In this document: positions 1,475 to 64,000 of the stretch, piece by piece
Numbering within the stretch: the stretch's first letter is position 1
Layout: the number at the start of each line of letters is the position of its first letter
Assembly (NCBI GenBank): GCA_963718735.1
Contig: OY970372.1
Coordinates: forward strand, 1,796,366-1,860,365
Reading direction: 5' to 3'
DNA from: an uncultured Solirubrobacterales bacterium
GTDB taxonomy: Bacteria; Actinomycetota; Thermoleophilia; Solirubrobacterales; Solirubrobacteraceae
DNA: 64,000 nucleotides
The notes under the pieces: generated by a model
The model's database searches: none
What the model saw: the letters and a program-made list of their open reading frames with translations, nothing else
What the model was told of the DNA's origin: nothing
Position numbers and translations under genes: made by a program

Positions 1475-1867
1475 CTCAGGCTCAGCCAAAGCGCTCGGTA
1501 CGAGTATCTGCGGCTGCAAGCGTGAGTCTGTGCGGCTCGATCCGGAGTTTGCGGAAGGCCCTGATTAGGGCGGAGCGTGATCACAAAACAGCTTCGTCGC
1601 TGATCCGCAAGGTCTTGACGCAGTATCTCAATGTCACCTGATTGCCTCGGCCGCCCGCTGGCGCGCTTGCCGCCCATCCGGCTCCATTAGCTGCTCAAGC
1701 AGCCGGTCCAGAAGGGCGCTGGGGTTCGCGCTTTGTCCCGGTCTCCCCGCCTCCTTGGTGTGTCCCGGTCTCAGTCGCTCAGGGCAGATTGAGTACCAGC
1801 AGGATGGCGCGGAGCGCCCCAACGACCAGGAAGTCCGGATCGCTGTCGCGAACGCATGCCGCCTTGA

Positions 1868-3295
1868 TCAACCGTGATAGGCGGGGCTCACCACTTCGAG
1901 CTGGCTCCATGGGATCGCGTCGAGAACGTCATAGGGATTGCCCAGAAGCGCATCGTATGGGTTTGGCGCCCCCGCCTGGATAAGCGGAGTGGTGTCCTGC
2001 GCCTGGAGTGCCACCGCTCCAGCGGTATCGCCCACGATCATCCCATAGCGCTTGATGGCCGTTGCGATCTCGAGCGCTGGCGGGCTGAGGTGCAGCGCGC
2101 TCAGGTCGAGCTTCGGATTCAACCGGAAGCGGGTGCCCTCGGGTATCGCGTCGGCGCTCGAAGAAGCCCCGTCGGTTCGGTCGGCCGGCCAAACGAACCC
2201 GCTGCGTGCGGTTTCGGGAACAGAGACTTCCAGCGCATGGTCGATGACGCCATGTTCGAGATCTTCCAAGTGAATCTGACCGCCGAAGAGCGAGAGGCCG
2301 GAAGCACCTGCACCGAACGGAGCCGGGAAGATGCCGTTACTGGTGTAGGCGTCGACGATCTCGCCCCCCCAGCAGGCCGTCCATCGCCCTGATTCCTCGA
2401 GCACGCGCCACAGCTCCCACAGGTGTCCCGTTGAGGGCTGCCAGACGATCACCTCTTTGTCGGCGCCTGCAGCCGGCATGGCATCTGTCGGCAACGGCAC
2501 GGCTTCTATCTGGCCTTGAAAGCCAGAGAAGACCCCTCCCGGGCGCGGGCAGATCGAGCTCTCGCCGACCAGGGCGATCGTCGGCGCATTCCGCGCCACG
2601 ACATAGACGGGCGCGCTCCATTCGGTCGTATTGATAACCACATGCCCGTAGTACCTTTTGATCTGATTGGTGAGGGCACTCACGAGCGCGGCGGAGTTGC
2701 TCGCAATCGGAGACGTCGCCCCCAGCGGCTGGTTGAAAACGCTCCCGGAGGCGAACAGGCGGAGGGATTCGGGGGAGCCTTCGACCGACGCGCTCCCGGA
2801 TGTGCCGTTTCCGGGGAGTTGACCGACCGTCGTGGTCGACGGGCCGCGACTCGACGAGATAGTGGACGCGGAAGCACCGCTGCCGGAAACATGCGAGCCG
2901 GTCATCGAGACTGGAATGCGCTTGCTATTCGCACGGCAGCGCTTGGCGCGCCGACAGGCAGTCGCACCGTGATGGCGACGACGGCGGGGGCGACGGGCAT
3001 GGCGCCTTGCCCTCGCGCCGGCCTTGGCGGTGGTCCTGTGCCGCGTTAGATGAGCTGCCCTAGATTGCGCTGCCCCAGCGCTGGCGGTCGCGCCACCGAA
3101 AGACGGCATTGCGCAGAGCAGGAAGGCAGACAGTGCCACCGTGGCGAGCAGATGACGGAACAAAGCTAGCCTCGCGGTGAGCGATGGGGCCTCGTGGTAA
3201 GCGCAGGGGCCTTGGGGCTGGGAATGCTCGACAGCATGCCACAGAGATCGGACTCGACGGACCAACGGTGTAGCCACCGCTGGCCAGATAGACAA
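1868..3295 (-). CDS. Secreted hypothetical protein (hydrophobic signal, Arg-rich and Ser/Gly-rich linker, conserved-looking C-terminal domain)
   Basis: 475-aa ORF with a signal-like segment LLATVALSAFLLCAMP and a globular C-terminus (WQPSTGHLWELW, GASGLSLFGG, IDHAL, IPEGTRFRL, RYGMIVGD). True start uncertain. Confidence 0.6.
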   Translation of the reverse strand: MSIWPAVATPLVRRVRSLWHAVEHSQPQGPCAYHEAPSLTARLALFRHLLATVALSAFLLCAMPSFGGATASAGAAQSRAAHLTRHRTTAKAGARARRHARRPRRRRHHGATACRRAKRCRANSKRIPVSMTGSHVSGSGASASTISSSRGPSTTTVGQLPGNGTSGSASVEGSPESLRLFASGSVFNQPLGATSPIASNSAALVSALTNQIKRYYGHVVINTTEWSAPVYVVARNAPTIALVGESSICPRPGGVFSGFQGQIEAVPLPTDAMPAAGADKEVIVWQPSTGHLWELWRVLEESGRWTACWGGEIVDAYTSNGIFPAPFGAGASGLSLFGGQIHLEDLEHGVIDHALEVSVPETARSGFVWPADRTDGASSSADAIPEGTRFRLNPKLDLSALHLSPPALEIATAIKRYGMIVGDTAGAVALQAQDTTPLIQAGAPNPYDALLGNPYDVLDAIPWSQLEVVSPAYHG

Positions 3296-3417
3296 ATGAG
3301 CGGAGTCTTGCAGGCCGGGTTGGTAGCTCGGCGAGCCCGTTGGTGCGGGGTGCGATTGGGCTCGCGAAGGTCCTGGAGCGCAAGAAATGAGCCTCCGTTT
3401 CAGTTTTCTCTACGCCT

Positions 3418-5938
3418 ATGGATGGTTTGTTGAGGTCTGGATGCCTTGGTCGTTGCTTGATCATCTCTCTAGCACTGGTTGCCTCGAGTCAGCCTGCCTT
3501 CGCAAGCTGGTCACCACTGGTCGGGGGTCGTGAAAGCCGGTCGCTCCCGCGGAGCACAAAGACGGCAACGGCCGTGGCGCGCGGGGGCAATCTCGTCCTC
3601 CATCCGACCGCCAGGCGCTCGCAGAGCGATCTGGCCAGCTGCTATGCGATCGCTGCGCTCACCGGAGGCGCGGCGCGCTTCACCGGCTCGCCGCGCAGTT
3701 CAAATGGTTCAGCTTTTCTGAACATAGGTCGTTACCGCCATCCCCTCATGCTGACTCAGTCGGCCACCTGCGCGCCAAGGGTGGTGGTGGGTCATGCGTA
3801 CACCGCCTCTCTTCGCTATCGCGGCACGGCCCGCGCGAGCTTCGAGGTGCTTGCCCACTCACAAACCGGCTGGCACGCCTGGTACGTCGCCGCCACGAGA
3901 CTGAAGGCGAGCAAGTCACTCACGAAGATCTCTGTGCTGCTGCGACCAATCCAGGGGGGAGTGGACCGAGTGGCCTTTGGCGTGCTCCTGCGCTCGCGTG
4001 GGTCGTTGCAAAGCACCAACTTCTCGTTGACCGACAGCTCGGCGGCCCCGGGCGTGTCCTCGCCGCCACTCAACGGATCCCACGGCTTCCCGACCCCCCT
4101 GTCCTGGCCGAGCTCGAGCACTCCGATGACCGAAGTGATTCCGTCAGGCGAAAAAGGACTGCCAGCCGAAGAAGCCCCGCCCAACGAAGAGACGCCACCC
4201 GCGGTGGGCGGCAAGTGGAAGGTCGTCACGGGCGTCGATAAAGCCCGCTCGGTTCACGCGATACTGCTCCAGAACGGCAAGCTCCTGATCATGGCCGGCT
4301 CTGGCAACGACCGGATGGAGTTCGAAGAAGGCAAGTTCAAGTCCTACCTGTACGACCCGGCGGCCGAAACGTGGAGGGAACTGACCACTCCCAAGGACGT
4401 CTTCTGCTCAGGCCACGTGCAGCTCGCCGACGGCAACGTGCTGATCCTTGGCGGCACGAGCGCCTACCCGGAAGCGCCCAAGCCCGGGGAATACCCGAGC
4501 ACCATTTACAAGGGCGAGAACATGAGCTGGATCTTCAACATCCGCTCTGAAAGATATGAACAAGTTCCTTATGACGAAGCCAAACCGAATAACCAGAGCG
4601 AACCTGGGCCCCTGCTCAGCGGCACGTGGTACCCGAGCGCCACCGAGCTCGGCAACGGCGACGTCATCTCCTTCGGCGGCCTGAACGAGCAAGGCGCAGG
4701 CACCACAAACACCAACTACTTCACCGATCCCGCCAACGAAGGCACGAACGGCGATCCGGCGGGCCAATGGGTCGGGTGGGGCTGCGACCAAGCTCCAGCA
4801 AACGTACTCGTGGTTCTGGGGCCTGTACCCCTCGATCATCCTGACCGCCGACGGCCGGCTCTTCTACGACGGCAGCCACGTGTTCGGAAACGGGCTGGAG
4901 GGCGATCCGCAGGCTCCCAGCGGCTCCTCGCTCTACGACTTCTACTGCACGTCTGGCAAGACGCTCGCGCAGGAAGAAGAAGAACGAAACAAAACCAATC
5001 CCGACGCCGAAGTCGAAGGTCCCAAGGGTGTTGTGTTCAAACGCGTGACAGACACCCCGGGTCTACGCGAACCGAACATGCGCGACCAGTCGGCGTCGCT
5101 GCTGCTCCCACCCGCGCAGAGCCAGAAGGTGATGATTATGGGTGGAGGCAACACCTACGAACCGAACAAGAACGCGATCGGACTCACCGACGAGATCGAC
5201 CTCCAGGAAGCGAACCCGCACTGGACCGCAGGGCCCAACCTGCCGCGTGGCTCGATGGAAGACAGCTCGATGGAGCCCCCGGGCGCCGGCAAGATGTACG
5301 TCTCGGCCGTCGCGCTGCCAGACGGCAGCGTGCTCGAGACGGGCGGCTCGCTGCACCCGCGCGCTGAAAACGTCCACGAGGCGTCGATCTTCGACCCCTC
5401 CACCAACTCCTTCAACCCGGTTCTCGCCGATCCCGTCGGCCGCAACTACCACTCCGAGGCGCTGCTGCTGCCCGACGGTCGCGTCATCGCGCTCGGCTCC
5501 AATCCCGCCGATCCCGCCACCGGCGCGGAAAGCTTCGAGGCACGCATCTCCGTCTACGAACCCCCGTACCTGTTCAAGGGCTCACGCCCTGTGCTCCAGC
5601 TCATCGACGGAGAAGCCAACCGCCTCGAAGGTGGGGTCAACCAGACCAAGCAGTGGGAATACGGGACCGAGCACACCCTCGGCTACACATCTTCCTCGCC
5701 AGTCACCAAGGCAGTGCTGATCCGCCCGGCGGCGGTGACCCATTCCTCCGACCCCAACCAGCGAGAGGTCGCGCTCCCGATCTCGAGCGACGAAAAAGGC
5801 GAGCTCACCGTGAGCCTCACCTCCAACGAGGACATCGCCCCACCGGGCTACTACATGGTGTTCCTCGTCAACTCGAGCGGCGTCCCGTCGGTGGCTCAGT
5901 GGGTCCACGTCGGAGCGCAGGGTGCGCCCACTCTCTAG
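3418..5938 (+). CDS. Copper radical oxidase, AA5/galactose-oxidase (GlxA-like), with N-terminal CBM-like domain, kelch propeller and C-terminal DUF1929; one +1 frameshift near 4778-4781
   Basis: FCSGH (cofactor Cys), WYPS (cross-link Tyr), RNYHSEALLLPDGRV (Tyr/His ligands), VTHSSDPNQR (His) and APPGYYMVF. Removing one G from GGGG at 4778-4781 joins ORFs 3418.. and 4880..5938 through WFWGLYPSIIL. Confidence 0.85.
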
Positions 5939-7541
5939 CCGCTATGACAAAGACCACCTTCATATATCCACGCGACCGCTTGGACCGGCCGTGAGCGTCG
6001 CGGTAGGCGTCCCGCGACATTCGTTCGCCGGCCATGGTCGGACGCTGGCGGGGGACCGACAAAGTGCCCTTGCTGGTGTGCTCGCCGTGATCCCCTGGGT
6101 TCTACTCGGCCTGTTCCTAGCCGCCGAGCTGGTCGTCGCCTCGATGCAGTTCGGCGGACCGTTCCTCGACGAGGGGATCTACGTGGCGGCCGGCCTGCGC
6201 ACGCTGCAGGGCCACGGGCTCGGCGACGACTACCTGTCGTGGTTCTCGGGCTCGCTCATGTGGCCTGTGCTGGCCGCGCTCGGATGGAAGCTCTTGGGAC
6301 TCGCGGGGGCCAGGGCGGCGGCAGCGATCTGCGTCACCATCGGCCTGGCCGGCGTGCTGAAGGCCAGCGGCAATCTGTTCGGCGCGCGGGTGCGCGCGGC
6401 GACGGCGCTGGGCGCGCTCACCAGCGGGCCGATCGTCGCGCTCGGGCATCTCGCCGTGTACGACACGCTCGCCGTAGGGGCGGCGGGCGGCGCCTTCTGG
6501 GCGATGACCGAGTTCTTGCGACAAGACAACCGTGCGTGGCTATGCGCCTCGGCGCTCCTCTACGCGCTCGCGGGGCTTGCAAAGTACCCGGTGCTGCTTT
6601 TCATCGGACCGCCGTTGATGCTGCTGGTGCTGGCCATCCGCGGTAGGCGCGCGGGGATGGATCTCGGGCTGTTCCTGTTTCTGGCCGGTGCTGTACTGCT
6701 CATCTACTTCCTCGCCGATCGCACCCAGCTGACGGCCTTCGAGGCGTTTCGCCTGCAGAACAACCCCAACTTCCAGGTAGCCCGAAATCAGATCGCCTAT
6801 TCGCAGCTATATCTCACGATCGTGCCGCTGATCCTCGCGGTGACCGGGGTAATCCTTGTAAGGGGCAGGCGGCTGATCGCACTCGCGCTGCTCACCGGGG
6901 CGATCGGCGCTCCGATCTATCACCTCGCCGGCGGCAATCCGTCGGGAGATCAGAAGCATGTGGTGTTCGCTCTGCTTTTCATGCTCCCGCTTATCGGGGT
7001 GACACTCAGCCACGCCATGCGGCGCTGGAGGCTCGTGCTTGCAATACCGGCGCTGGCGGGCCTCGCGGCGTTCGGGCTCGTCCAGATGGTGCGCATCGAC
7101 GAGGGTTGGCCGGATCTGCGCGCCGTCTCCTCGGTGCTTCTCCACGACGTGCGCCCAGGGGAACGGCTGCTGGCCAACTCCGCATGGGTGGAGGCCGCAT
7201 ACCTCTATGACCACGGCAGGATCGAAAGCCCATATGACCTCTATGACGCCTCCCGCGTTGCGCGCCTGGCCAGTCCGGTGGACGTTTGCGCCTTCCAATG
7301 GCTCATCGAAGTGCCAGGCGAGGAACCCTGGCCGACGTCGATCCGCCTGGCGATGCGCCGCTGCCGAACTTTTCACAAGGTCTACTCCTCCACCGCGACG
7401 GTGACGGGTCTCGGAAACAACTTGCGATTCGTCACCTACCGGGCGCCCATCGAAGTGTGGAGGAACGAGCAGGTCGATCTGAGACCTGGATATGGACCAT
7501 CAACCGCGAGATCGAGATCAAGGACGGTCAGAGCGCGATGA
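5922..7541 (+). CDS. GT-C fold membrane glycosyltransferase (ArnT/PMT_2/GT39-like)
   Basis: FLDEGIY acidic motif after the first TM, about 11-12 hydrophobic helices, AKYP motif and an extracellular C-terminus. Real start probably later (about 5992-6077). Confidence 0.75.
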   Translation: MRPLSSRYDKDHLHISTRPLGPAVSVAVGVPRHSFAGHGRTLAGDRQSALAGVLAVIPWVLLGLFLAAELVVASMQFGGPFLDEGIYVAAGLRTLQGHGLGDDYLSWFSGSLMWPVLAALGWKLLGLAGARAAAAICVTIGLAGVLKASGNLFGARVRAATALGALTSGPIVALGHLAVYDTLAVGAAGGAFWAMTEFLRQDNRAWLCASALLYALAGLAKYPVLLFIGPPLMLLVLAIRGRRAGMDLGLFLFLAGAVLLIYFLADRTQLTAFEAFRLQNNPNFQVARNQIAYSQLYLTIVPLILAVTGVILVRGRRLIALALLTGAIGAPIYHLAGGNPSGDQKHVVFALLFMLPLIGVTLSHAMRRWRLVLAIPALAGLAAFGLVQMVRIDEGWPDLRAVSSVLLHDVRPGERLLANSAWVEAAYLYDHGRIESPYDLYDASRVARLASPVDVCAFQWLIEVPGEEPWPTSIRLAMRRCRTFHKVYSSTATVTGLGNNLRFVTYRAPIEVWRNEQVDLRPGYGPSTARSRSRTVRAR

Positions 7542-9217
7542 ACAACGACACAGTTGATCGAGACCAATTCGCCCGCGCTGCGGGAGTGGCGCTGTTGCTC
7601 TCAACAGCATGGTTCGTTCCCTGGCTGATCGGCCACGCCGACATGTCGAAGGCGTGGCTCAGCATCCCCTTCGTGCTCGCCACCCTGATCGTGGCCGCGG
7701 CCTCGCTCGTATCGGTTGTCAACCGCTGGCAGCGGGCGGAGCCCGAACGGACGCCCCTGCCAGCTGGGGCCGAGCCCACAGTCGCCGTGATCATCCCGAC
7801 GCTCGGTGAGCCACTCGAGCTGCTGGAGGCGACTGTGCGCTCGGTATTCGATCAAGACTGGCCGCTCGAGCGCCTGTGGGTGCTCGTCAGCGACGACGCC
7901 CGCGATGCGCGCGTGCGCGGACTGGTCAAGCGCCTCGCCCGAATATATCCAGAGGCGAGCCTGCGCTATCACAGGCCGCCAAGACCGGGGAACCCGCGTC
8001 GTAATGGCGAAGCCAAGGCCGGCAATCTCAATTCCGCGCTCACGCTGTTGCCGGCACATGTCGACTTCGTGGAGACACGCGACGCCGACGATCTCGTGGG
8101 CGACCGATGCTTCCTGCGGGAGACGGTGGGCCAGCTGTTGCACCGAGAGAAGCTTGCCTTCGTGCAAACCGAAAAGGCTGGCGAGGTCGCCCCAGGCGAC
8201 CCGTTCGACAATCAGCAGCCCCATTTCTTCCGGTGCGCGATGCGCTCGCGATATGCGGCCAACGCGGTATTTCCCTGTGGGTCGGGCGTAGTGTGGCGGC
8301 GCAGCGCGCTGCGCGAGATCGGCGACTTCCCGACCTGGAACTTGGTGGAGGATCTGCAATCGGGCATGGAGGCTCTTCGGTTGGGGTGGGATGGCTGCTA
8401 CCTACCGATCCTTGGCGCCTATGCGCAGCATTCGCCGGAGGATCTCCCGAACTTCATCAAGCAGCGCGGCACCTGGGCGCTCGACACGATCAGGCTCACC
8501 CTGTGGGCCCCCAAGCGCGGTTTGAATCTGCGCCAGCGCCTGCAGTTCTACGAGCTCGGGCTCTTCTACATGCAGGGCCCAGCCACGCTCGTGTTCCTGC
8601 TCTCCCCGATCCTCGGCTTTACGTTGCACTGGTATCCCGTGATCACGAGCACCAGTGGCTTTGTGCTGCACTTCTGGCCGTTCGCAGTGGCGCTCGAGCT
8701 CCACCTAGCGCTCGTGCACAGGCCGATGTCCTTCGAGCAGCTGTGGCGCGCGCGGCTGGTGTGGGCAGGCCTCTGCTTCGCGTATGCGCGCGCGCTCGTG
8801 CTGGCCGTGACCGGCGGTCGCAACGGCAAGCCGCGCTATGTGGTTACGCGCAAGGAGAACCGATACGCCTTGCACTGGCGAGAGATAGCGCCCCACATCG
8901 TGCTCCTCACTCTGCTGGCAGGCTCGATGGCGTGGTCGCTCGCTCATCACGACGTCTTGAGAAGCTTCGACGTCGGCTCGGCTTACTGGGCGGTCCTCTA
9001 CAGCCTGTTCCTGCTCGGCTTCGTTCGGCTCGGCTGGCATGGCGTGCGCAAGCCATCCACCGGCATCGCTCCCCCGGTCCTCTACGCCGCTAGGGGACCG
9101 CTCGGCACAGTGAGGGCGGCCACGAGCGCCCCTGTCATGGCGGGCGTCAGACATTCGACCACCAGCCCCTCCCCGATCTCGCTACCGATGTCGGCCACCT
9201 TGCCGATTCGTGAGTGA
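7538..9217 (+). CDS. Cellulose-synthase-like processive GT2 (CslA-like), no PilZ domain
   Basis: ATGA overlap with the upstream stop. VSDD, KAGNLN, DADD, VQT, FPCGSG, VEDL and KQRGTW motifs, with N- and C-terminal TM helices. Confidence 0.85.
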   Translation: MNNDTVDRDQFARAAGVALLLSTAWFVPWLIGHADMSKAWLSIPFVLATLIVAAASLVSVVNRWQRAEPERTPLPAGAEPTVAVIIPTLGEPLELLEATVRSVFDQDWPLERLWVLVSDDARDARVRGLVKRLARIYPEASLRYHRPPRPGNPRRNGEAKAGNLNSALTLLPAHVDFVETRDADDLVGDRCFLRETVGQLLHREKLAFVQTEKAGEVAPGDPFDNQQPHFFRCAMRSRYAANAVFPCGSGVVWRRSALREIGDFPTWNLVEDLQSGMEALRLGWDGCYLPILGAYAQHSPEDLPNFIKQRGTWALDTIRLTLWAPKRGLNLRQRLQFYELGLFYMQGPATLVFLLSPILGFTLHWYPVITSTSGFVLHFWPFAVALELHLALVHRPMSFEQLWRARLVWAGLCFAYARALVLAVTGGRNGKPRYVVTRKENRYALHWREIAPHIVLLTLLAGSMAWSLAHHDVLRSFDVGSAYWAVLYSLFLLGFVRLGWHGVRKPSTGIAPPVLYAARGPLGTVRAATSAPVMAGVRHSTTSPSPISLPMSATLPIRE

Positions 9218-9679
9218 GTCGTCGTCTCGGCGAGCGCTCAAAGCCAGCAAAGCCAGCAGGACGGCGAGGGCAACGCCAACCGTGAGGATCGGGGCGTCGC
9301 TTCCGAGGAAACGTTCGACGAGATCGCGCGGAGCCGCCTGTGGCGCCCGCGGGCGGGGGCGGGGGCGCAGCGAGGCCGCCACCGCTCTCATCCTGGCGAG
9401 GGTAGCGACGCTCGGATAGCCGGTGATCGGCAGCCTGTACTTGCGTTGAAAGTAGGAGAGGGCGCCTCGGGTGCGCACACCCAGGCGACCTGTCCGTTCT
9501 TTGCCAAGCGGATAGCCGAGCTCATGGAGGAGACGCTGCGCCTCGACGACCTTCGCGCGGGACGGCGCACGATGGGCGGCGAGGGCCAGGCCGCTCGGCA
9601 CCATCGCCAACAGCGCGATCAGTGCGATCCTTGGGGCAGCCCGGCGGCAAGCAGGTGCAAGGTGACGCAAACGAACCAT
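9182..9679 (-). CDS. Peptidoglycan-binding domain (PG_binding_1) protein with signal peptide and C-terminal TM
   Basis: VVEAQRLLHELGY...GRLGVRTRGALSYFQRKYRLPITGY is a typical PG-binding repeat. Confidence 0.75.
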   Translation of the reverse strand: MVRLRHLAPACRRAAPRIALIALLAMVPSGLALAAHRAPSRAKVVEAQRLLHELGYPLGKERTGRLGVRTRGALSYFQRKYRLPITGYPSVATLARMRAVAASLRPRPRPRAPQAAPRDLVERFLGSDAPILTVGVALAVLLALLALSARRDDDSLTNRQGGRHR

Positions 9680-9795
9680 CAACTTGCCAGTTTTCCACGT
9701 CTCGGCTCGGCTTCCTCTCCAAAGGCAGGCCTCCCAGGCACGAAGGCGTCAGCACCCCACCCACATAGCCGATCAAGGACCTATGGTTTGAAAAC

Positions 9796-12828: not shown

Positions 12829-13866
12829 TCAGCCGAAGAAGACTTCCGCAGTCTCGAACAGACGCGGGTCGAGCAGCTTCGGCTCGGCCAGCGCCTCAGC
12901 CAGGCCCACCTCGACGATGTCCGCACCCTGCAACGCGACCATACGACCGAAGCGTCCGGCGGCCGCTGCGTCCATCGCGGCTACGCCGAAGCGCGTGGCC
13001 AGCACCCGATCGTAGGCGGTGGGCGTCCCCCCGCGCTGCACGTGCCCAAGGATCGTCGCGCGCGTCTCATATCCGGTGAGCGCCTCCAACTCTTGCGCCA
13101 GCTCGACGCCGATCCCTCCAAGGCGCACGTGGCCGAACTCGTCGGTGGCGTGCGCATCGGCGAGCGTCATCGCGCCGCCCACTCGTGGTGTGGCGCCCTC
13201 GGACACGACCACGATCGAGAATGTGATCCCGGCGGCGTGGCGCCGACGCAGACGGCCGCAGAGCTCCTCGATGTCGAACGGGCGCTCCGGCACGAGGATC
13301 GCGTCGGCCCCGCCCGCGATCCCTCCACATGTCGCGATCCAACCGGCGTGACGGCCCATCACCTCGACCACCATCACGCGATTGTGCGACTCGGCGGTCG
13401 TGTGCAGACGGTCGATCGCCTCGGTCGCGATCTGCACAGCAGTGTGGAAGCCGAAGGTCACATCCGTGCCGCCGATGTCGTTGTCGATCGTCTTGGGCAC
13501 GCCGACGATCGGCAGCCCGTGATCGGAGAGACGCAAAGCCACCCCAAGCGTGTCCTCGCCGCCGATCGGTATCAGAGCATCGATGCGCTCCCGCTCGAAT
13601 GTGCCTTCGATCCTCTTCATCCCCCCCGCTCGTCCGTCGAGCGGGTTCGTGCGCGAAGTGCCGAGGATCGTGCCACCGCGCGGCAGGATCCCGGCTGTGC
13701 TCTCGCGCGTCAGCTCGACCACGTTGCGCTCGAGCACACCGGCCCAGCCATGGCGGAAGCCGACGAAGCTGTTCTGTCCCTCGCTCAGGCCGCGACGCAC
13801 GATCGCGCGAATCACGGCGTTTAGGCCTGGGCAGTCGCCGCCACCCGTGAGGATTCCTACGCGCAT
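12829..13866 (-). CDS. pfkA: 6-phosphofructokinase (PfkA family)
   Basis: MRVGILTGGGDCPGLN, GGTILGTSR, GGEDT, PKTIDND, EVMGRHAGW and LGHVQRGG. Confidence 0.95.
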   Translation of the reverse strand: MRVGILTGGGDCPGLNAVIRAIVRRGLSEGQNSFVGFRHGWAGVLERNVVELTRESTAGILPRGGTILGTSRTNPLDGRAGGMKRIEGTFERERIDALIPIGGEDTLGVALRLSDHGLPIVGVPKTIDNDIGGTDVTFGFHTAVQIATEAIDRLHTTAESHNRVMVVEVMGRHAGWIATCGGIAGGADAILVPERPFDIEELCGRLRRRHAAGITFSIVVVSEGATPRVGGAMTLADAHATDEFGHVRLGGIGVELAQELEALTGYETRATILGHVQRGGTPTAYDRVLATRFGVAAMDAAAAGRFGRMVALQGADIVEVGLAEALAEPKLLDPRLFETAEVFFG

Positions 13867-13968
13867 TGGAGCTCGAGCCACTCCCACTTTGGGGTTCAGT
13901 GCTTTACCACCGACGATAGGGGAATTTGTCCGCTGGCCCTCGCTCGCGCAGACCACTAGCGTCGACGG

Positions 13969-14643
13969 ATGCTCCTGTTCCTCCGTCTTGCCTCTGTGCC
14001 CAACACCGAGCCAACGAGCCCGATCAAGATCGTCCTGGCCGACGACCACGCGGCGATGCGTGAGAGCCTGCGTCAGCTGCTCGACGGCGAAGCCGACATC
14101 GACGTGATCGCCGAAACAGACAGCCTGGGGTCGGTGTTGGGCCATGTGCGCGCCCGTCGGCCAGACGTGCTCGTGCTCGATTTCGGCATGCCCAGCCGCG
14201 GCTCTGGGATCGAGGCGCTCAGCCGGCTCAATCGCGAGGCGCGCGACACGAGCATCGTGGTGCTCACCATGAACGACGATCCGGCGTTTGCCAAGCGCGC
14301 GCTCGACAACGGCGCTGTCGGAATCGTGCTGAAGGAGATGGCCGACTCCGACCTGCCGGCGGCTGTGCGCGACGCCTCGCGCCGCAAGCGCTACGTGAGC
14401 CCGTTGATCGCGACCAAGCTGGGCGCCGGCAAGCGCCAGGACGCAGACAAGCTGACGCCGCGTGAGCGCGAGGTGCTGCGACTGATCGCGCTCGGGCACA
14501 CGAGCGTCGAGATCGCGCAGAGACTCGAGCTCTCGCCGCGCACCATCGAGACGCACCGTGCGCGCATCCATCGCAAGCTCGGGCTGGAAACGCGTGCCGA
14601 GCTCGTGCACTACGCCCTGCGACACGAACTGCTGCAGCTGTGA
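13969..14643 (+). CDS. NarL/LuxR-family response regulator
   Basis: IVLADDH, PDVLVLD, LTM and LKE receiver residues. C-terminal LTPREREVLRLIALGHT HTH. Confidence 0.92.
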   Translation: MLLFLRLASVPNTEPTSPIKIVLADDHAAMRESLRQLLDGEADIDVIAETDSLGSVLGHVRARRPDVLVLDFGMPSRGSGIEALSRLNREARDTSIVVLTMNDDPAFAKRALDNGAVGIVLKEMADSDLPAAVRDASRRKRYVSPLIATKLGAGKRQDADKLTPREREVLRLIALGHTSVEIAQRLELSPRTIETHRARIHRKLGLETRAELVHYALRHELLQL

Positions 14644-58546: not shown

Positions 58547-59645
58547 GTGCCGACTCTGCGCCAGCGCCCGCGAGTTCGCCGCGCAATTGAGCGGATGGCG
58601 CGGCGTACCTTGAGAGCAGTCGGTTCCTCCCACGAGTTGACCCTGCCAGCGCCTCCTCCCCCTCCACCGCCTGAGCCGCCGAAACCTGAGGCCAGCGACC
58701 TTGCACGCGAACTGGATTCCGACGGACTCGCGGGCGACCGAGATCGCGTCTCGGAGTTGCTTGCCGCGCGCTTGAGCGATGAGGACTTGGCCGAGTTGGA
58801 GCGTCATCTAGTGGATGCCCCTGAGCTTCAGACGATCTACTTTGCCTCCTGTAACCCAACGCCGCCAGGTGACCTCGTACTGGCATATGGCGCTTGGCTC
58901 AAGGTCGCACCTGTGATCGAGAAAGCCGGCCTGACCGCAGACCAACCTCCAGAAGATGTGCACGCGATGGCCCGCGGGCCGCTCTCCGCGGCCGGAGGCC
59001 TATACGAGGCCGACATGGTCGCCGACGCTCTCGGCGGCGTCGGCGTGGATATAGCCAACATAGGCAGCGCCCTTGACTTCGGCTGCTCCTCCGGCCGCGT
59101 AGTGCGAGTCTTGGCGTCCGCTTACCCGGACATTCACTGGCACGGCTGCGACCCCAACGGCCCAGCGATCGCCTGGGCCGCCGAGAATCTCCCCGGTATC
59201 GAGTTCTTCGTCAACGAGGACGCCCCGCCGCTGCCGTTGGCCGATGCCTCTCTGGACCTCGCCTACGCGATCTCGATCTGGTCGCACTTCGCGCCCGAGC
59301 TCGGCCTGCGCTGGTTCGAGGAGATGCGCCGCCTGATTCGCCCCGGCGGCCACCTCGTCTGCACGACGCACGGACTGACCTCCATAGCCCATTACGCCCT
59401 CTCGGAGCTGCGCACGCCCGAGCAGTCTCTCGAGATCCGCGAAGCCCTCTACCGCGACGGCGCCTGGTACGCCCCCGAGTTCGGCGAGCAGGGCGACTGG
59501 GGCGTCGTGAACCCCGACTGGGGCACCGCTTTCCTCAGCCCAGAGTGGATGCTCACGAAGCTCTGCTCCCCGCTGGCGCGTGCTGGAGTTCGCGCCGGGA
59601 CGCAACCAGGAGAACCAGGACGTATACGTGCTCCAACGGGTTTGA
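58547..59645 (+). CDS. Class I SAM methyltransferase; frameshift near 59565-59570
   Basis: LDFGCSSGR, GCDPN, AISIWSH and CTTHG. The shifted frame gives the plausible end RWRVLEFAPGRNQENQDVYVLQRV*. Confidence 0.82.
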
Positions 59646-59695
59646 CGCGCCATCGCGCGGAGACCTGCGGCTTGACCTCCCGCCGAACGTTCAAC

Positions 59696-61159
59696 ATGGC
59701 TGAGACGCCTGCGAAGCCAGCGCCAGAGCAGTTCGCAGCAGGCGACCTACTTCCCGAACGGCGAGTTGCGCCGCAGCCACTCGGCCAAGAGGGGTCGCGA
59801 CCCCGCCGCGCCCAGCGCCCTGGCTTGCGCGCATCTGGCCGATCGGCAAGCCGACGGCCGGGCGCCGTGGAAGCGATTGCTAGCGTTCACATACCCTTGT
59901 CGACCACCGCACCCACCGTCGAGCCGGCGCTCGCCGTACCGGCAGAGACCCAGTCGGCGAACCCAATCGCGATCTCGATCGACGACGTCAGCAAGACGTT
60001 CCGGCTGCCCCACCAGCAGTACTCGACGCTCAAGGAGCGGGTCGCTGCACCCGTTCCGCTCGACCGACTACGACGAGCTGCACGCGGTCAAGGACGTCAG
60101 CCTCGAGATCGCCCAGGGCGAGTTCTTCGGCATCGTCGGGACGCAACGGCAGCGGCAAGAGCACGCTGCTGAAGTGCATCGCCGGGCATCTACGGCGTCG
60201 ACCGGGGCCGGCATCTCGATCGCCGGGCGGCTCTCGCCGTTCATCGAGCTCGGCGTCGGCTTCAACATGGACCTGACCGCCCGCGACAACGTGATCATCA
60301 ACGCGATCATGCTCGGGCTCGAGCCGGCGCCAGGCGCGCGAGCGCTTCGACGAAGTGATCGCGTTCGCCGAGCTCGAGGAGTTCATCGACCTGAAGCTGA
60401 AGAACTACTCCTCGGGGATGCTCGTGCGGCTCGCGTTCGCGACCGCGATCCAGGTCGACGCGGAGATCCTGCTGATCGACGAGGTGCTCGCCGTCGGCGA
60501 CGCCGCCTTCCAGCAGAAGTGCTTCGACGAGTTCTTCCGGCTCAAGCGCGAAGGCAAGACGATCGTGTTCGTCTCCCACGACATGTACTCGGTCGAGCGC
60601 TTCTGCGACCGCGCGATGCTGATGGAGCGCGGCGACATGCGTGCAGATCGGCGACCCGCGCGAGATCGGCCGCGCCTACCACAAGCTGAACTTCGGCCAG
60701 CTGCCACACGAGGCGCCCGGCCGAGGCGCCGGCGCGACCGGCACGGCGATCGCCGACGCCTGGTTCGAGAACGCCGCCGGCGAGCGCGTCACGAGCGCCA
60801 GCCAGGAGGACGCCGCTGAGCATGTGCTTCGAGGTCCGCTTCGGCGAGGAGCCTCGAGGACCCGGTCTTCGCGGCGACGCTGCGCACCGAGCTCGGCCAC
60901 ACGATCGTCGTCGCGCGCATCGACCAGCACGGCGGCGCGAGCGGCTCCTTCAAGGCCGGCGAGACCGCGATCGCGACGCTTCGCGCTGCCGAACTGGCTG
61001 ACGCCGAGCCGCTACACGCTGACGCCGTCGCTCGCCCGCGAGGGCACCGGCGAGAACGCGCTCGCACTGGTCGAGGACATGACCTCGATCCTCGTCCACG
61101 GCACGACCAGCGGCGGGATCCTCGAGCTGCCGGTCGACGTGAGGATCGAGCGCGCATGA
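59696..61159 (+). CDS. wzt: Polysaccharide ABC exporter ATP-binding subunit with C-terminal Wzt_C domain (multiple frameshifts)
   Basis: Fragments: DDVSKTF, AVKDVSLEI, GKSTLLKCI, ELGVGFN, YSSGMLVRLAF, IDEVLAVGD, VSHD and a Wzt_C-like beta domain. Confidence 0.85.
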
Positions 61160-62051
61160 GCGCCAGCGAGGGAGCCCTCCCAGTCGCACAGCGTGCGCCA
61201 GCGCGCCACCGCGTCCACGGCCCATCGGCGCTCGGCGACGACCTCCGCCGCTTCTGGGCCTGACGTTCACGCTCGCGCGCACCGAATTCAAGCTGCGCTT
61301 CTTCGGCTCGGTGCTCGGCTACGTCTGGACGCTCGTGCGCCCGCTGCTGTTCTTCGGCGTGCTGTACGTCTTCTTCACGAAGGTCGGCCACGTCAACGAC
61401 TGGAACCAAGCCCGGCGAACAGTTCTACGGCGCGCAGCTGCTCGGCTCGATCGTGCTGTTCACGTTCTTCGCCGAAGCGACCGCCGGCGCGGTGCGCAGC
61501 GTCGTCGACCGCGAGAACCTGCTGCGCAAGATCCACTTCCCGCGCCTGGTGATCCCGCTCTCGGTCGTGCTGCTCGCGCTGTTCAACCTCGGGCTGAACC
61601 TGATCGTGGTGGCGATCTTCGCGCTCGGCGCGGGCGTGCAGCCGATGCTCAGCTGGCTCGAGCTGCCGCTGATCATCGGCGCGCTGGTCGTGTTCGCGGC
61701 CGGCATGGCGATGCTGCTCTCGGCGCTGTTCGTGCGCTTCCGCGACATCCAGCCGATCTGGGAAGTGATCTCCCAGATCCTCTTCTACGCCTCGCCGGTG
61801 ATCATCTCGATCCAGACGGTGATCGCAAAGCTCAGCTCCACGCTGGCTGCACGTCTACATGCTCAACCCGCTCGCGGTGATCCTCCAGCAGTTCCGCCAC
61901 GCGCTGGTCACCCACGCCACCCCGAGCGCCGGCGAGGTGCTCGGCAGCTGGACGGCCCTGCTCGGTGCCGCTCGCGATCGTCGTCGCGATCTTCGTCGTC
62001 GGCTTTGCGGTCTTCAACCGCGCGGCGCCGCGGATCGCGGAGAACCTCTGA
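61156..62051 (+). CDS. wzm: Polysaccharide ABC exporter permease (frameshifted)
   Basis: RFFGSVLGYVWTL, NLLRKIHFP, FRDIQPIW, FYASPV and LNPL. Confidence 0.85.
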
Positions 62052-62052
62052 G

Positions 62053-62346
62053 ATGGACGCAATCGACGTGGAGAGCCGACAACGGGAGCTCGAGGCCGAG
62101 ATCGAGCGTCTGCGCGCGCGCGTCGCCGCGCTCGAGGCAGAGCTCGTCGAGGTCCAGGCGCGCGCCAACGCCGCCGTCGCCGCAGTGGCAGGAGCGCGCC
62201 TACTGGCTCGACCGCTGGCACATCGACCTCAACGCGCTGATGCGACGCCCGGGCGCCAACGAGTTGCGCGCTGGCGCTGCGCGCGGTCCGCGCCGTCGTT
62301 CTGGCGGCATCAGGCGAGCTCAAGCGTCGCTCTGCTGGGATCGTGA
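62053..62346 (+). CDS. Small coiled-coil protein (frameshifted)
   Basis: RQRELEAEIERLRARVAALEAEL heptads followed by ERAYWLDRWHIDLNALM in a second frame. Confidence 0.55.
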   Translation: MDAIDVESRQRELEAEIERLRARVAALEAELVEVQARANAAVAAVAGARLLARPLAHRPQRADATPGRQRVARWRCARSAPSFWRHQASSSVALLGS

Positions 62347-64000
62347 GCGCCGTCTCCGTCGTGATCCCCGTCAAGGACGGGGAGCGCTACCTGGAGGAGC
62401 TGCTCGACGCGCTCGCCCGCGAGGGCGCCGACGAGATCGCTCGTGATCGACTCCGGCTCGCGCGACCGCTCGCGCGAGATCGCCCGCGCGGCCGGCGTCG
62501 AGCTGCTCGAGATCGACCCGCACGAGTTCGGCCACGGGCGCACGCGCAACCTCGGCGCCGAGCGCACCTCCGGCGAGCTGATCTGCTTCCTGACCCAGGA
62601 CGCGACGCCCTGCCCGGGCTGGCTCGCCGCCTACCGCGAGGCGTTCACGCTCGACGAGCGCGTCGGCGCCGCCTACGGCCCGCACCTGCCGCGCCCCGAC
62701 ACGAGCCCGATGATCGCGCGCGAGCTGACCGAGTTCTTCGCCGGCTTCTCGCCCGACGGCGCGCCGGTCGTCCAGCGCGCCGGCGACCCGACCTTCCTCT
62801 CGAACGTCAACGCCTGCTACGCGCGCGCCTGCTGGGAGGAGATCCGCTTCCGCGACGTCGCCTACTCCGAGGACCAGGCCTTCGGCGCCGACCTGCTCGC
62901 CGCCGGCTGGGCGAAGGTCTACCACCCCGGCGCCGCCGTCCTGCACGCCCACGACTACGGCACCGCTCGAGTTCATGCGCCGCTACTTCGACGAGTACCG
63001 CGGCCTGCGCGAGAGCGACCGGCCACGTCGAGCCGTTCGGCCGGCTCGCGGCGACCGCGTCACGTCGCGCGGCGAGGTCGCGGCCGACCGGCGCTGGATG
63101 GCCGAGCACGGCGTCGGCCGGCCGCGAGCGCGCGCGCGCTGGACGGCGCGCGCGCTCGTCGCACCACGGCGGCCGCCGCGTGTTCTCGGCGCTCGGCTCG
63201 CGCGCCGAGCGCGCTGCCCGCGCCGCTGCAGCGGCGCGCTCTCGCTCGAGGGCCGCGGCGACGCGGCGCGCGGCCGCCGACGCGCGCGGCCACGGCGAGC
63301 GGCGCGAGCGGCGCGCCGGCGCCGTCGCCGCCTGCCGCCGGCGAGCACGTCGACCAGATGCTCGCAGCGCGACGACTACGACGTCGGTCGCGCGCGTCTG
63401 GCGCGAGGGCCCGGCGCCGCTGCTCGACCCGCGTGCCCGGCATGGCCGAGCGCGAGCGCCTGCGGCTCGCGATGGTGATCCCGCCGTTCACGCCGCGGCA
63501 GCGGCGGCCACAACACGCTCTTTCAGATCTTCTCGCGCCTGGAGCGGCGCGGGCACGCCTGCAGCGTCTGGCTGGCCGACTACCACGGCGCATGCACGCG
63601 ACCGTCTGGCCGGCGGTGCTGCGCCACGACATCCACGAGTTCTTCGCGCCCGTTCGCAGGGCCCGTCTACAAGGGCTTCGACGACTGGCAGGGCGCCGAC
63701 GTCGCGATCGCGACCGGCTGGCAGACGGTCCACGCGACGCTCGCTGCTCGACAGCTGCCGCGCGCGCGCCTACGTCGTCAACGACCACGAGCCCGAGTTC
63801 TACGCCGCCTCGACCGAGCGCGCGCTGGCCGAGGACACCTACCGCCACGGCCTGCACTGCATCGCCGCGAGCCCGTGGCTGCGCGACCTGCTGATCGAGC
63901 GCTACGGCGCGAGCGCCGACGCGTTCCAGCTCGGCGTCGAGCACGACATCTACCAGCCGCGGCCGGTCGCGCGCCGCGCGCGACACGGTCATCTACTACG
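62343..64000 (+). CDS. GT2 rhamnosyltransferase fused to a WsaF-like GT4 domain; many frameshifts, runs off the window
   Basis: VSVVIPVKDG, IDSGSRD, FGHGRTRN, FLTQDA, FLSNVN, SEDQ, HAHDY, then MVIPPF...SGGHNT, ADVAIATGWQT and NDHEPEFY. Confidence 0.78.
   Translation, partial: MSAVSVVIPVKDGERYLEELLDALAREGADEIARDRLRLARPLARDRPRGRRRAARDRPARVRPRAHAQPRRRAHLRRADLLPDPGRDALPGLARRLPRGVHARRARRRRLRPAPAAPRHEPDDRARADRVLRRLLARRRAGRPARRRPDLPLERQRLLRARLLGGDPLPRRRLLRGPGLRRRPARRRLGEGLPPRRRRPARPRLRHRSSSCAATSTSTAACARATGHVEPFGRLAATASRRAARSRPTGAGWPSTASAGRERARAGRRARSSHHGGRRVFSALGSRAERAARAAAAARSRSRAAATRRAAADARGHGERRERRAGAVAACRRRARRPDARSATTTTSVARVWREGPAPLLDPRARHGRARAPAARDGDPAVHAAAAAATTRSFRSSRAWSGAGTPAASGWPTTTAHARDRLAGGAAPRHPRVLRARSQGPSTRASTTGRAPTSRSRPAGRRSTRRSLLDSCRARAYVVNDHEPEFYAASTERALAEDTYRHGLHCIAASPWLRDLLIERYGASADAFQLGVEHDIYQPRPVARRARHGHLL

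Follow-up and report, generated by a model that had tools for sequence, protein, structure and literature searches.

Does the locus described here, in which genes for a GlxA-like oxidase, a GT-C protein and a family 2 glycosyltransferase (GT2) lie side by side, encode a glycan machine of the Streptomyces cslA-glxA type with an extra decorating transferase, as an original prediction made from the letters had it, or a system of another kind? The stretch analysed (the window) comprises 64,000 nucleotides (nt) from an uncultured Solirubrobacterales bacterium (GenBank assembly GCA_963718735.1, contig OY970372.1), being C1:1796366-1860365 of a 3.42-Mb single-contig genome with a G+C content of about 65%. 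Open reading frames (ORFs) and family searches place five genes at window 1868-9682, namely X475 on the minus strand, the oxidase, GT-C and GT2 genes on the plus strand and a PG_binding_1 gene on the minus strand again, and the sequence comparisons below tip slightly in favour of their forming a cassette that makes a cell-surface glycan by a synthase-dependent route. Directly observed are the genes with their families and catalytic motifs, their co-conservation, their movement as a unit and the fusion of the peptidoglycan (PG)-binding module to the synthase in sister lineages. The features are as follows.

1868-3295, minus strand: X475 (ORF; divergent from the oxidase gene)
3418-4783, plus strand: GlxA-like oxidase, 5' part, frame 1 (ORF, Pfam/NCBIfam, alignment to 4UNM)
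4784, plus strand: extra base G, at which the oxidase passes out of frame 1 into frame 2 (blastn, nearest relative)
4785-5938, plus strand: GlxA-like oxidase, 3' part, frame 2 (ORF, Pfam/NCBIfam, alignment to 4UNM)
5991-7541, plus strand: GT-C, PMT_2 / GT39-like (ORF; an alternative GTG start at 5922 is unlikely)
7538-9217, plus strand: BcsA-like processive GT2 (ORF, Pfam/NCBIfam, BcsA alignment)
7889, 8078, 8342, 8459 and 8837, plus strand: GT2 motifs DDA, DADD, VED, QRGTW and the gating loop YVVTRKE, respectively (BcsA alignment)
9182-9682, minus strand: PG_binding_1 membrane protein of 166 amino acids (aa) (ORF, Pfam)

Regarding the layout, the oxidase, GT-C and GT2 genes are co-oriented as predicted, the last two sharing an ATGA overlap that can be read straight from the sequence (7538-7541), and the expected PG-binding protein is present, its gene being convergent with the GT2 gene and overlapping it by 36 nt. 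The genes at 3418-9682 stand as they had been claimed, although the conserved unit also takes in the minus-strand gene at 1868-3295, which lay outside the predicted interval. The nearest relative, CAVXTI010000001 (locus L018), is 91.7% identical over window 1831-9718, and in comparison with it the ratio of nonsynonymous to synonymous substitution rates (dN/dS) lies between 0.10 and 0.28 for all cassette genes, with values of 0.13 for X475, 0.12 for GT-C and 0.25 for the PG_binding_1 gene.

The synthase and the unit built around it

The GT2 protein matches Glyco_tranf_2_3 (Pfam) with 65 bits and the CelA model TIGR03030 (NCBIfam) with 143 bits, and it aligns with BcsA of R. sphaeroides over residues 17-496 (E 1.5e-26, 96 bits). 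Besides the motifs listed above, KAGN and FPCGSG are aligned to BcsA, in which the counterparts of QRGTW and YVVTRKE are QRGRW and FAVTAKD, respectively. The protein therefore has the D, DxD, TED, QxxRW-region, gating-loop and C-terminal channel features of a BcsA-type processive GT2, its departure being the replacement of Arg by Thr. Its hydropathy indicates 2+4 transmembrane (TM) helices, and as it stops about 55 aa past the last of them with no PilZ match at E<=0.01, the predicted processive synthase type devoid of a PilZ domain is borne out; likewise, no BcsB-like gene is present within the cassette. Across phyla, about 50 loci have these motifs letter by letter, the Thr of QRGTW among them, indicating from sequence conservation that this residue is a subfamily signature and not a sign of decay. 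In BcsA structures, the Arg of QxxRW contacts the UDP diphosphate; if that role holds here, donor handling may differ in the QRGTW subfamily.

For the comparison with CslA, the reference was the genuine glxA-cslA locus of a Streptomyces-like genome (L084), whose GlxA scores 1148 bits on the GlxA model; GlxA was not found in the control genome set. The GT2 of the window is 23% identical to this CslA over 301 aa, with 34 bits, compared to 96 for BcsA and 143 for TIGR03030. The predicted CslA-like assignment was consequently rejected, and by these alignments the protein is not a CslA orthologue but a member of a distinct subfamily in which QRGTW is invariant.

The scan of species-representative genomes, with the window proteins compared by tblastn, yielded 53 loci found via GT-C. 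Most belong to uncultured metagenome-assembled genomes (MAGs) of Solirubrobacterales/Solirubrobacteraceae (many named MFD...), together with Thermoleophilaceae, Acidimicrobiales and an 'Actinomycetes' MAG; the others come from many Anaerolineae and further Chloroflexota, the Ktedonobacteria bacterium brp13 and two distant Gemmatimonadaceae matches. GT-C is directly followed by GT2 in 49 of the 53, the exceptions being two contig ends and the two Gemmatimonadaceae matches. Meanwhile, the oxidase, X475 and the PG-binding module are limited to Solirubrobacterales, where the oxidase occurs in 25 of 27 loci and X475 in all 27. As the pair is found in nearly all these loci and the oxidase in a single order, GT-C plus GT2 is, among loci found via GT-C and as far as gene content tells, the widespread pair, and the oxidase a lineage-specific addition. 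This reverses the proposal that GT-C had been added to a cslA-glxA pair. The prediction had also named neighbourhood conservation as a check, and the order and orientation X475(-) | oxidase-GT-C-GT2(+) are kept in 25 Solirubrobacterales loci. The GT-C family was found in none of 400 sampled Actinomycetota genomes besides that of the window itself, making the system rare and patchy.

Synteny with the nearest relative runs from 1831 to 9718 only. In the sister clade, where the PG-binding module is fused to the synthase, two divergent GT4 genes flank the five-gene set; in the genome of the window the same two GT4 genes stand 72 bp apart at C1:2572051-2574428, 770 kb away from the cassette. The GT4 pair without a cassette and the sharp ends of the synteny thus indicate that the five genes travel as a unit. 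No terminal repeats or mobile-element signatures were found at the cassette edges.

The PG_binding_1 domain (PF01471, 45.4 bits against a cut-off of 23) is located between two TM helices, in an extracytoplasmic position. The module lies on the GT2 strand in 12 loci, and in 10 of the 11 that can be read through it is within the GT2 ORF itself, in a layout of GT2, TM, spacer repeats, PG_binding_1 and TM amounting to 650-710 aa, whereas in 14 loci, including the window and the nearest relative, it stands as a gene of its own on the opposite strand. The separate gene is, from this comparison of layouts, the outcome of an evolutionary fission by inversion; an assembly inversion artefact was considered and rejected, as the orientation is common to 14 loci and the gene is under purifying selection. 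The fusion to GT2 in sister lineages ties the module functionally to the synthase.

Two further loci bear on the synthase as observations in their own right. In G018 (locus L087, 4781-7722), a QRGTW-type GT2 paralogue with 45% identity immediately follows the gene of a GH114 hydrolase (E 1.5e-78), beside a two-component system; the QRGTW subfamily may make different polymers in different lineages or contexts. In the nearest relative (L018, 11851-16927), about 5 kb lacking in the window are placed between the PG-binding and enoyl-CoA hydratase genes, encoding a GGDEF-EAL protein, a PIN-domain protein and an extracytoplasmic function (ECF) sigma factor, so that an enzyme of cyclic diguanylate (c-di-GMP) metabolism adjoins a cassette whose synthase has no PilZ.

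The oxidase and its extra base

The oxidase has a Kelch propeller, a C-terminal GO-like E-set domain (PF09118, 82.6 bits) and the five active-site residues of a copper radical oxidase of the AA5/galactose oxidase superfamily, with Kelch and Glyoxal_oxid_N matches in Pfam. Its 5' part comprises a signal-like N-terminus, an N-terminal domain, a Ser/Pro-rich linker and, carrying the Cys and Trp-Tyr, the first blades of the propeller, while the 3' part holds the remaining blades with the Tyr-His and His, followed by the GO-like E-set domain. All copper and cofactor residues had been reported as present, and the alignment to GlxA of S. lividans (4UNM) agrees: Cys121 is faced by the Cys at 4405-4407 (in FCSGH), Trp288-Tyr289 by the Trp-Tyr at 4627-4632 (WYPS), Tyr501-His502 by the Tyr-His at 5447-5452 (NYHSE) and His589 by the His at 5741-5743 (THSSD).

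The question of how closely this protein corresponds to GlxA has two sides. 4UNM is its best match among solved structures (E 2.3e-70), fungal AA5 structures (galactose and alcohol oxidases) matching more weakly (E 1e-25 to 1e-15), and GlxA is thus its closest characterised relative, as predicted. The top NCBIfam model is also GlxA (NF052501); however, the two halves score 118.7 and 225.9 bits, well under the curated cut-off of 800 bits. In addition, when the intact oxidase of the relative was compared with the genuine GlxA by BLASTP, the identity was 34% over 478 residues and 47% over 91, in blocks pairing oxidase residues 207-295 with GlxA 51-141 and 309-776 with 261-644. GlxA 142-260 (119 residues) is therefore faced by just 13 oxidase residues, and domain 2, which spans aa 143-260 of GlxA and is inserted in the propeller (PMC11022532), is lacking.

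On the other hand, the oxidase has an N-terminal domain of its own (about 3589-4062, 135-150 aa) with two invariant Cys and the Ser/Pro-rich linker behind it. A word-based search for homologues found it confined to orthologous oxidases. The prediction had called this domain CBM-like (CBM, carbohydrate-binding module), and a 22-sequence profile gave no Pfam or PDB sequence match that would bear this out. Ahead of it, a single hydrophobic stretch is followed by A-F-A, and by hydropathy both a cleaved signal peptide and an anchor fit. Given the score below the cut-off, the missing domain 2 and the N-terminal domain, the protein is, as judged from its sequence, a GlxA-like radical copper oxidase of a different architecture and no GlxA equivalog. 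Such sub-cut-off GlxA-like proteins occur in 48 of 401 sampled Actinomycetota genomes, compared to 8 of 401 for genuine GlxA, the latter in large Streptomyces-like genomes with 1029-1148 bits on NF052501.

The coding sequence is broken, as frame 1 ends in ...GQWVGWG and frame 2 goes on with ...KLQQTYSWFWGLYPS. The orthologues are intact and run unbroken across the site, reading GFGSNKLQQTY or GWGSTKLQQTY. By blastn, the difference is one extra base at 4784, with GGGGCT[G]CGACC in the window against GGGGCT-CAACC in the nearest relative, and deleting this G yields the exact amino acids of that relative, G-S-T-K. Over the 7.9 kb of aligned cassette genes it is the only non-triplet coding indel, apart from a difference of 17 nt within the N-terminal region of X475, where conservation is poor. 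Programmed frameshifting was rejected, since the frame is continuous in the relatives and the site has no slippery motif.

The extra base is probably an assembly error. The relatives are intact, dN/dS is 0.10 before the frameshift (propeller part) and 0.28 after it, so that both halves are under purifying selection that is strong even at the higher value, and two other genes of the same assembly are split. A frame-tracking hidden Markov model (HMM) trained on this genome, which placed the oxidase junction at 4773/4774, lists about 80 junctions genome-wide and overstates frameshifts, several being gene boundaries (rpsB/tsf, nuoM/nuoN, the end of uvrA), and consequently verified cases alone count. 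One is carB (G000:C1, about 196673), with CPSase_L_D2 in one frame and the D3 oligomerisation and second pre-ATP-grasp domains in the next; the other is a GGDEF-EAL gene broken inside EAL (about 2919006), where the first frame covers profile positions 3-74 and the following one 82-236. For a free-living bacterium, a consensus error is a far likelier cause of a frameshift in carB than any biological event. The sister MAG loci L044, L063 and L070, which come from data of the same kind, also have many frame breaks. A recent real inactivation is the less likely account by a clear distance, and next to nothing is left for anything else. If the base is an assembly error, the cassette would be fully functional.

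It had been stated beforehand that a real frameshift in a decaying locus would speak against the predicted system. The frameshift is indeed in the assembled sequence, and a decaying locus would mean that the mutation is real, the oxidase a pseudogene, and the cassette either working without it or being lost. This is consistent with a site that is not a homopolymer, with the higher dN/dS behind the frameshift than ahead of it, and with the cassettes L027 and L028, which have no oxidase and indicate that its loss is tolerated in nature. Nevertheless, the rest of the 7.9 kb is intact with its other coding indels in triplets, 0.28 still denotes strong purifying selection, removal of a single base restores the residues of the nearest relative, and the frameshifts in carB and the EAL gene point to consensus errors, so that decay of the locus was judged unlikely.

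The GT-C protein and X475

The GT-C of the window scores 24 bits against PMT_2, just below the Pfam cut-off of 26.1; in a diverse GT-C alignment, all 14 members match PMT_2 (best E 1.6e-9) and five match PMT. The protein has the features of the PMT_2/GT39-like type, with the PMT_2 signature, a multi-span topology and an acidic motif in the first outer loop, and its homologues are named 'glycosyltransferase family 39', with source names such as Solirubrobacteraceae. Behind some 9-11 TM helices, the C-terminus forms an extracytoplasmic domain of 150 aa in which two Cys are invariant. The loop motif, Asp60-Glu61 (6168-6173), is invariant down to 31% identity, as are some 55 other positions. Regarding the start, the alignment with the nearest relative has indels of 1 nt and 3 nt between 5922 and 5991 that disrupt the frame, and the GTG at 5991 is thus most likely the true one. 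A search of the PDB with the GT-C profile found no solved GT-C (PMT, ArnT) by sequence.

The donor of such an enzyme is suggested by other lineages. In Anaerolineae, the operon consists of a short GT2 (250 aa), GT-C, a BcsA-like GT2, a pyrroloquinoline quinone (PQQ) dehydrogenase of the GSDH type (700-1520 aa), a GH26-like protein and a second PMT_2 protein. The top NCBIfam matches of the short GT2 are PpgS, dolichyl-phosphate hexose transferase and ArnC, all polyprenyl-phosphate sugar synthases; the homologue P0102 is a fusion of a GT2 of that type to GT-C, and the genome of the window has a 49%-identical short GT2, located 670 kb from the cassette. From this adjacency, fusion and copy, it is proposed that GT-C would use a polyprenyl-phosphate sugar donor on the outer face. 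An obligatory role of GT-C for QRGTW-type synthases was considered and rejected, as G018 and G001 have the synthase and no GT-C of this family. GT-C is always accompanied by the QRGTW synthase type, and not vice versa; a modifying role therefore fits better than an obligatory one. In a Thermoleophilaceae MAG (L039, 4879-11071), a 305-aa GT2 and a UDP-GlcNAc 2-epimerase are placed ahead of the GT-C/GT2 pair, so that the donor or product of that lineage may contain ManNAc.

GT-C could instead be a protein O-glycosyltransferase of the Pmt kind, acting on the linkers of the oxidase and X475 and not on the polymer. PMT_2 and PMT are its sole Pfam matches, both proteins carry long Ser/Thr/Pro-rich linkers, and actinobacterial Pmt/Ppm1 systems glycosylate linkers of just this composition. 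However, GT-C is tied to GT2 throughout the sampled loci (49 of 53), including those of phyla that have neither the oxidase nor X475, its gene shares the ATGA overlap with that of GT2, and the failure of its profile to find any solved PMT or ArnT indicates a distant, separate family, leaving this alternative improbable. Still less probable is a mainly structural partnership with the synthase, with no essential transferase chemistry on the polymer, since the need of BcsA for BcsB and of CslA for the membrane helix and outer domains of GlxA (PMC11022532), the 1:1 assembly suggested by translational coupling and the absence of a donor-synthase gene from the cassette are outweighed by the Asp-Glu loop motif and the many residues invariant across 31-95% identity, by the polyprenyl-phosphate sugar synthase genes adjacent or fused in other lineages and by the QRGTW-type synthases that occur without this GT-C.

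X475 has an N-terminal hydrophobic anchor, a basic and Ser/Thr-rich linker and a conserved C-terminal domain of 300 aa (1871-2788), and is secreted or membrane-anchored. The C-terminal domain is 64-92% identical in the relatives, where it is kept beside the oxidase. Counted along the 306-aa domain, His184, Asp206 and Arg222 do not vary, and Asp110, Glu125 and Asp254 are near-invariant. No match was obtained in Pfam or NCBIfam, nor with its profile among PDB sequences; nevertheless, the family counts 7314 representatives at E<=1e-3, with relatives fused to malectin, ricin-B, F5/8-C, CBM6/35, dockerin and Ig-like domains. Such partners are the usual company of secreted carbohydrate-active catalytic domains. 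An AF2 model built on a 65-sequence alignment reached a pLDDT of 95 and a pTM of 0.92, compared to a pLDDT of 44.6 when 14 close orthologues alone were used. Foldseek gave no fold counterpart for it in the PDB (best E 1.2). In BFVD, it resembles a minor tail protein of Gordonia phage Guillaume (E 7e-20, TM-score 0.70), a 985-aa protein (E 2e-20, TM-score 0.72) and a phage 'parallel beta-helix repeat' protein. The family is uncharacterised and, going by its fusions, probably carbohydrate-active, and the domains of the relatives together with the likeness to phage tail proteins suggest that X475 may be the glycanase or glycan-binding component of the cassette. Some 175 kb upstream of the cassette, the genome encodes two paralogues of the C-terminal domain with 37-39% identity, at G000:C1:1622261-1623172 and 1629394-1630278.

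Proposed mechanism and relation to known systems

In the proposed mechanism, GT2 would draw on a nucleotide sugar in the cytoplasm to polymerise a beta-linked glycan and would thread the chain across the membrane, where the translationally coupled GT-C would branch or decorate it at the outer face as it emerges, using a polyprenyl-phosphate sugar. The secreted oxidase would then oxidise the glycan after its export, or the surroundings of the glycan, in the way assumed for GlxA and the apical glucan of Streptomyces, X475 would trim or release the polymer, a role played by CslZ or BcsZ in known systems, and the PG_binding_1 protein would tether the machine to peptidoglycan. That an oxidoreductase and a glycanase are integral parts is suggested by the Anaerolineae loci, which have a PQQ glucose/sorbosone-dehydrogenase propeller and a GH26-like protein behind GT2.

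Several points weigh against this assignment. The frameshift lies outside any homopolymer, so a real recent mutation is possible, and L027 and L028 have X475 directly upstream of GT-C and no oxidase in between. No polyprenyl-phosphate sugar synthase gene is found within this cassette, and G018 and G001, which are of the same genus, have QRGTW-type GT2s of 45-47% identity and no GT-C of this family in the genome. The Arg of QxxRW is replaced by Thr throughout the subfamily. The associated hydrolases vary by lineage, being X475, GH26-like, GH10 or, next to the paralogue, GH114, and the entire case for an activity of X475 consists of the fused domains of its relatives and the phage-tail fold likeness. 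As for the sugar and linkage of the polymer, cellulose is not to be assumed.

A precedent is the CslA-GlxA complex, which makes cellulose in vitro (PMC11022532). Similar to the CslA-GlxA-CslZ system of Streptomyces (with LpmP), the cassette of the window combines, presumably in one transcript, a membrane GT2 with a radical copper oxidase that is secreted, and has a presumed glycan-cleaving enzyme nearby, in a monoderm actinobacterium. The differences are as follows: the GT2 is not a CslA orthologue; the oxidase has its own N-terminal domain in place of domain 2 and reaches about 345 bits against the cut-off of 800; the gene order is reversed, with GT-C in between; and the presumed hydrolase is a protein of new fold instead of a GH6, alongside a PG_binding_1 tether and a non-mycelial host. 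With proteobacterial BcsA-BcsB, it shares the aligned catalytic domain and C-terminal channel helices, including the D, DxD, (T)ED, FFCGS-like and FxVTxK motifs; unlike that system, it has neither PilZ nor BcsB, has QRGTW for QxxRW and only two N-terminal TM helices, and is partnered by GT-C.

Regarding GT-C, comparable features are seen in GtrABC (O-antigen glucosylation), CsbB-GtcA-YfhO (teichoic-acid glycosylation), ArnC-ArnT and Ppm1-Pmt, namely the Asp-Glu of loop 1, the PMT_2 relationship and, in related operons, an adjacent or fused short GT2 of the polyprenyl-phosphate-sugar-synthase type, the proposed target here being an exported polymer. In contrast to those systems, the polymer would come from a BcsA-like synthase, the cassette has no flippase or donor synthase, and no solved GT-C is matched. 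A bacterial pairing of a chitin-synthase-like GT2 with a galactose-oxidase-like protein, FbfA/FbfB of Stigmatella aurantiaca, is mentioned in an earlier paper (PMC3543389). This processive-type GT2 and galactose-oxidase-family protein are likened to the present pair by description, and belong to a different phylum. To our knowledge, neither a GT-C nor a PG tether accompanies them.

Further parallels are the Anaerolineae operons (L040, L043, L055 and others), whose GT-C and GT2 are orthologous (39-51% identity), in the same order and with the same invariant motifs. There, however, a PQQ sugar dehydrogenase stands for the copper oxidase and a GH26-like protein for X475; the operons contain in addition a polyprenyl-phosphate sugar synthase along with a second PMT_2 protein, and the PG_binding_1 module is absent. 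Full-text literature searches found no description of a BcsA-like synthase paired with a GT-C, with or without a GlxA-like oxidase. Tentatively, the cassette may be one face of an undescribed class, in which a PMT_2-type GT-C coupled to a QRGTW synthase recruits non-homologous oxidoreductases (the copper oxidase in Solirubrobacterales, the PQQ dehydrogenase in Anaerolineae) and glycanases (X475, GH26-like). If this is true, post-export oxidation would be general in the glycan deposition of monoderm and Chloroflexota-type envelopes, being no peculiarity of Streptomyces, and X475 would found a new carbohydrate-active enzyme family that also includes actinophage tail proteins.

The presence of two unrelated oxidoreductases on the same synthase pair argues that oxidation of the exported glycan itself is the selected function. 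In 2013, GlxA orthologues were regarded as almost confined to Streptomyces (PMC3543389), whereas here, in an actinobacterium that is not mycelial, another lineage of synthase has recruited a GlxA-like oxidase. The mechanism of GlxA in Streptomyces glucan deposition is still unclear, and the cassette offers simpler systems for testing glycan oxidation. Moreover, the pairing of GT-C with a BcsA-like synthase suggests how synthase-dependent polymers could come to be branched or decorated, the PG_binding_1 fusion shows a way of tying such a synthase to the wall, and X475 points to a very large unannotated family (more than 7000 representatives), probably carbohydrate-active, with a fold absent from the PDB.

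Elsewhere in the window, a gene with a phosphodiester glycosidase (NAGPA) domain lies directly outside the cassette (245-1474) and is not kept beside it in the relatives. At 12829-14643, a minus-strand ORF of 598 aa with a phosphofructokinase domain is probably over-extended, as the frame model gives minus-strand coding to about 13990 only, followed by a plus-strand gene at 13991-14639 (ORF 13969-14643). Finally, overlapping plus-strand ORFs with changing frames at 58547-64000 encode a methyltransferase, an ABC-2 transporter membrane protein (from profile position 59), a WsaF-like protein and a GT2 (from profile position 33); this region looks like a surface polysaccharide cluster of the ABC-transporter type with apparent frame breaks, or else like atypical codon usage that confuses the frame model.

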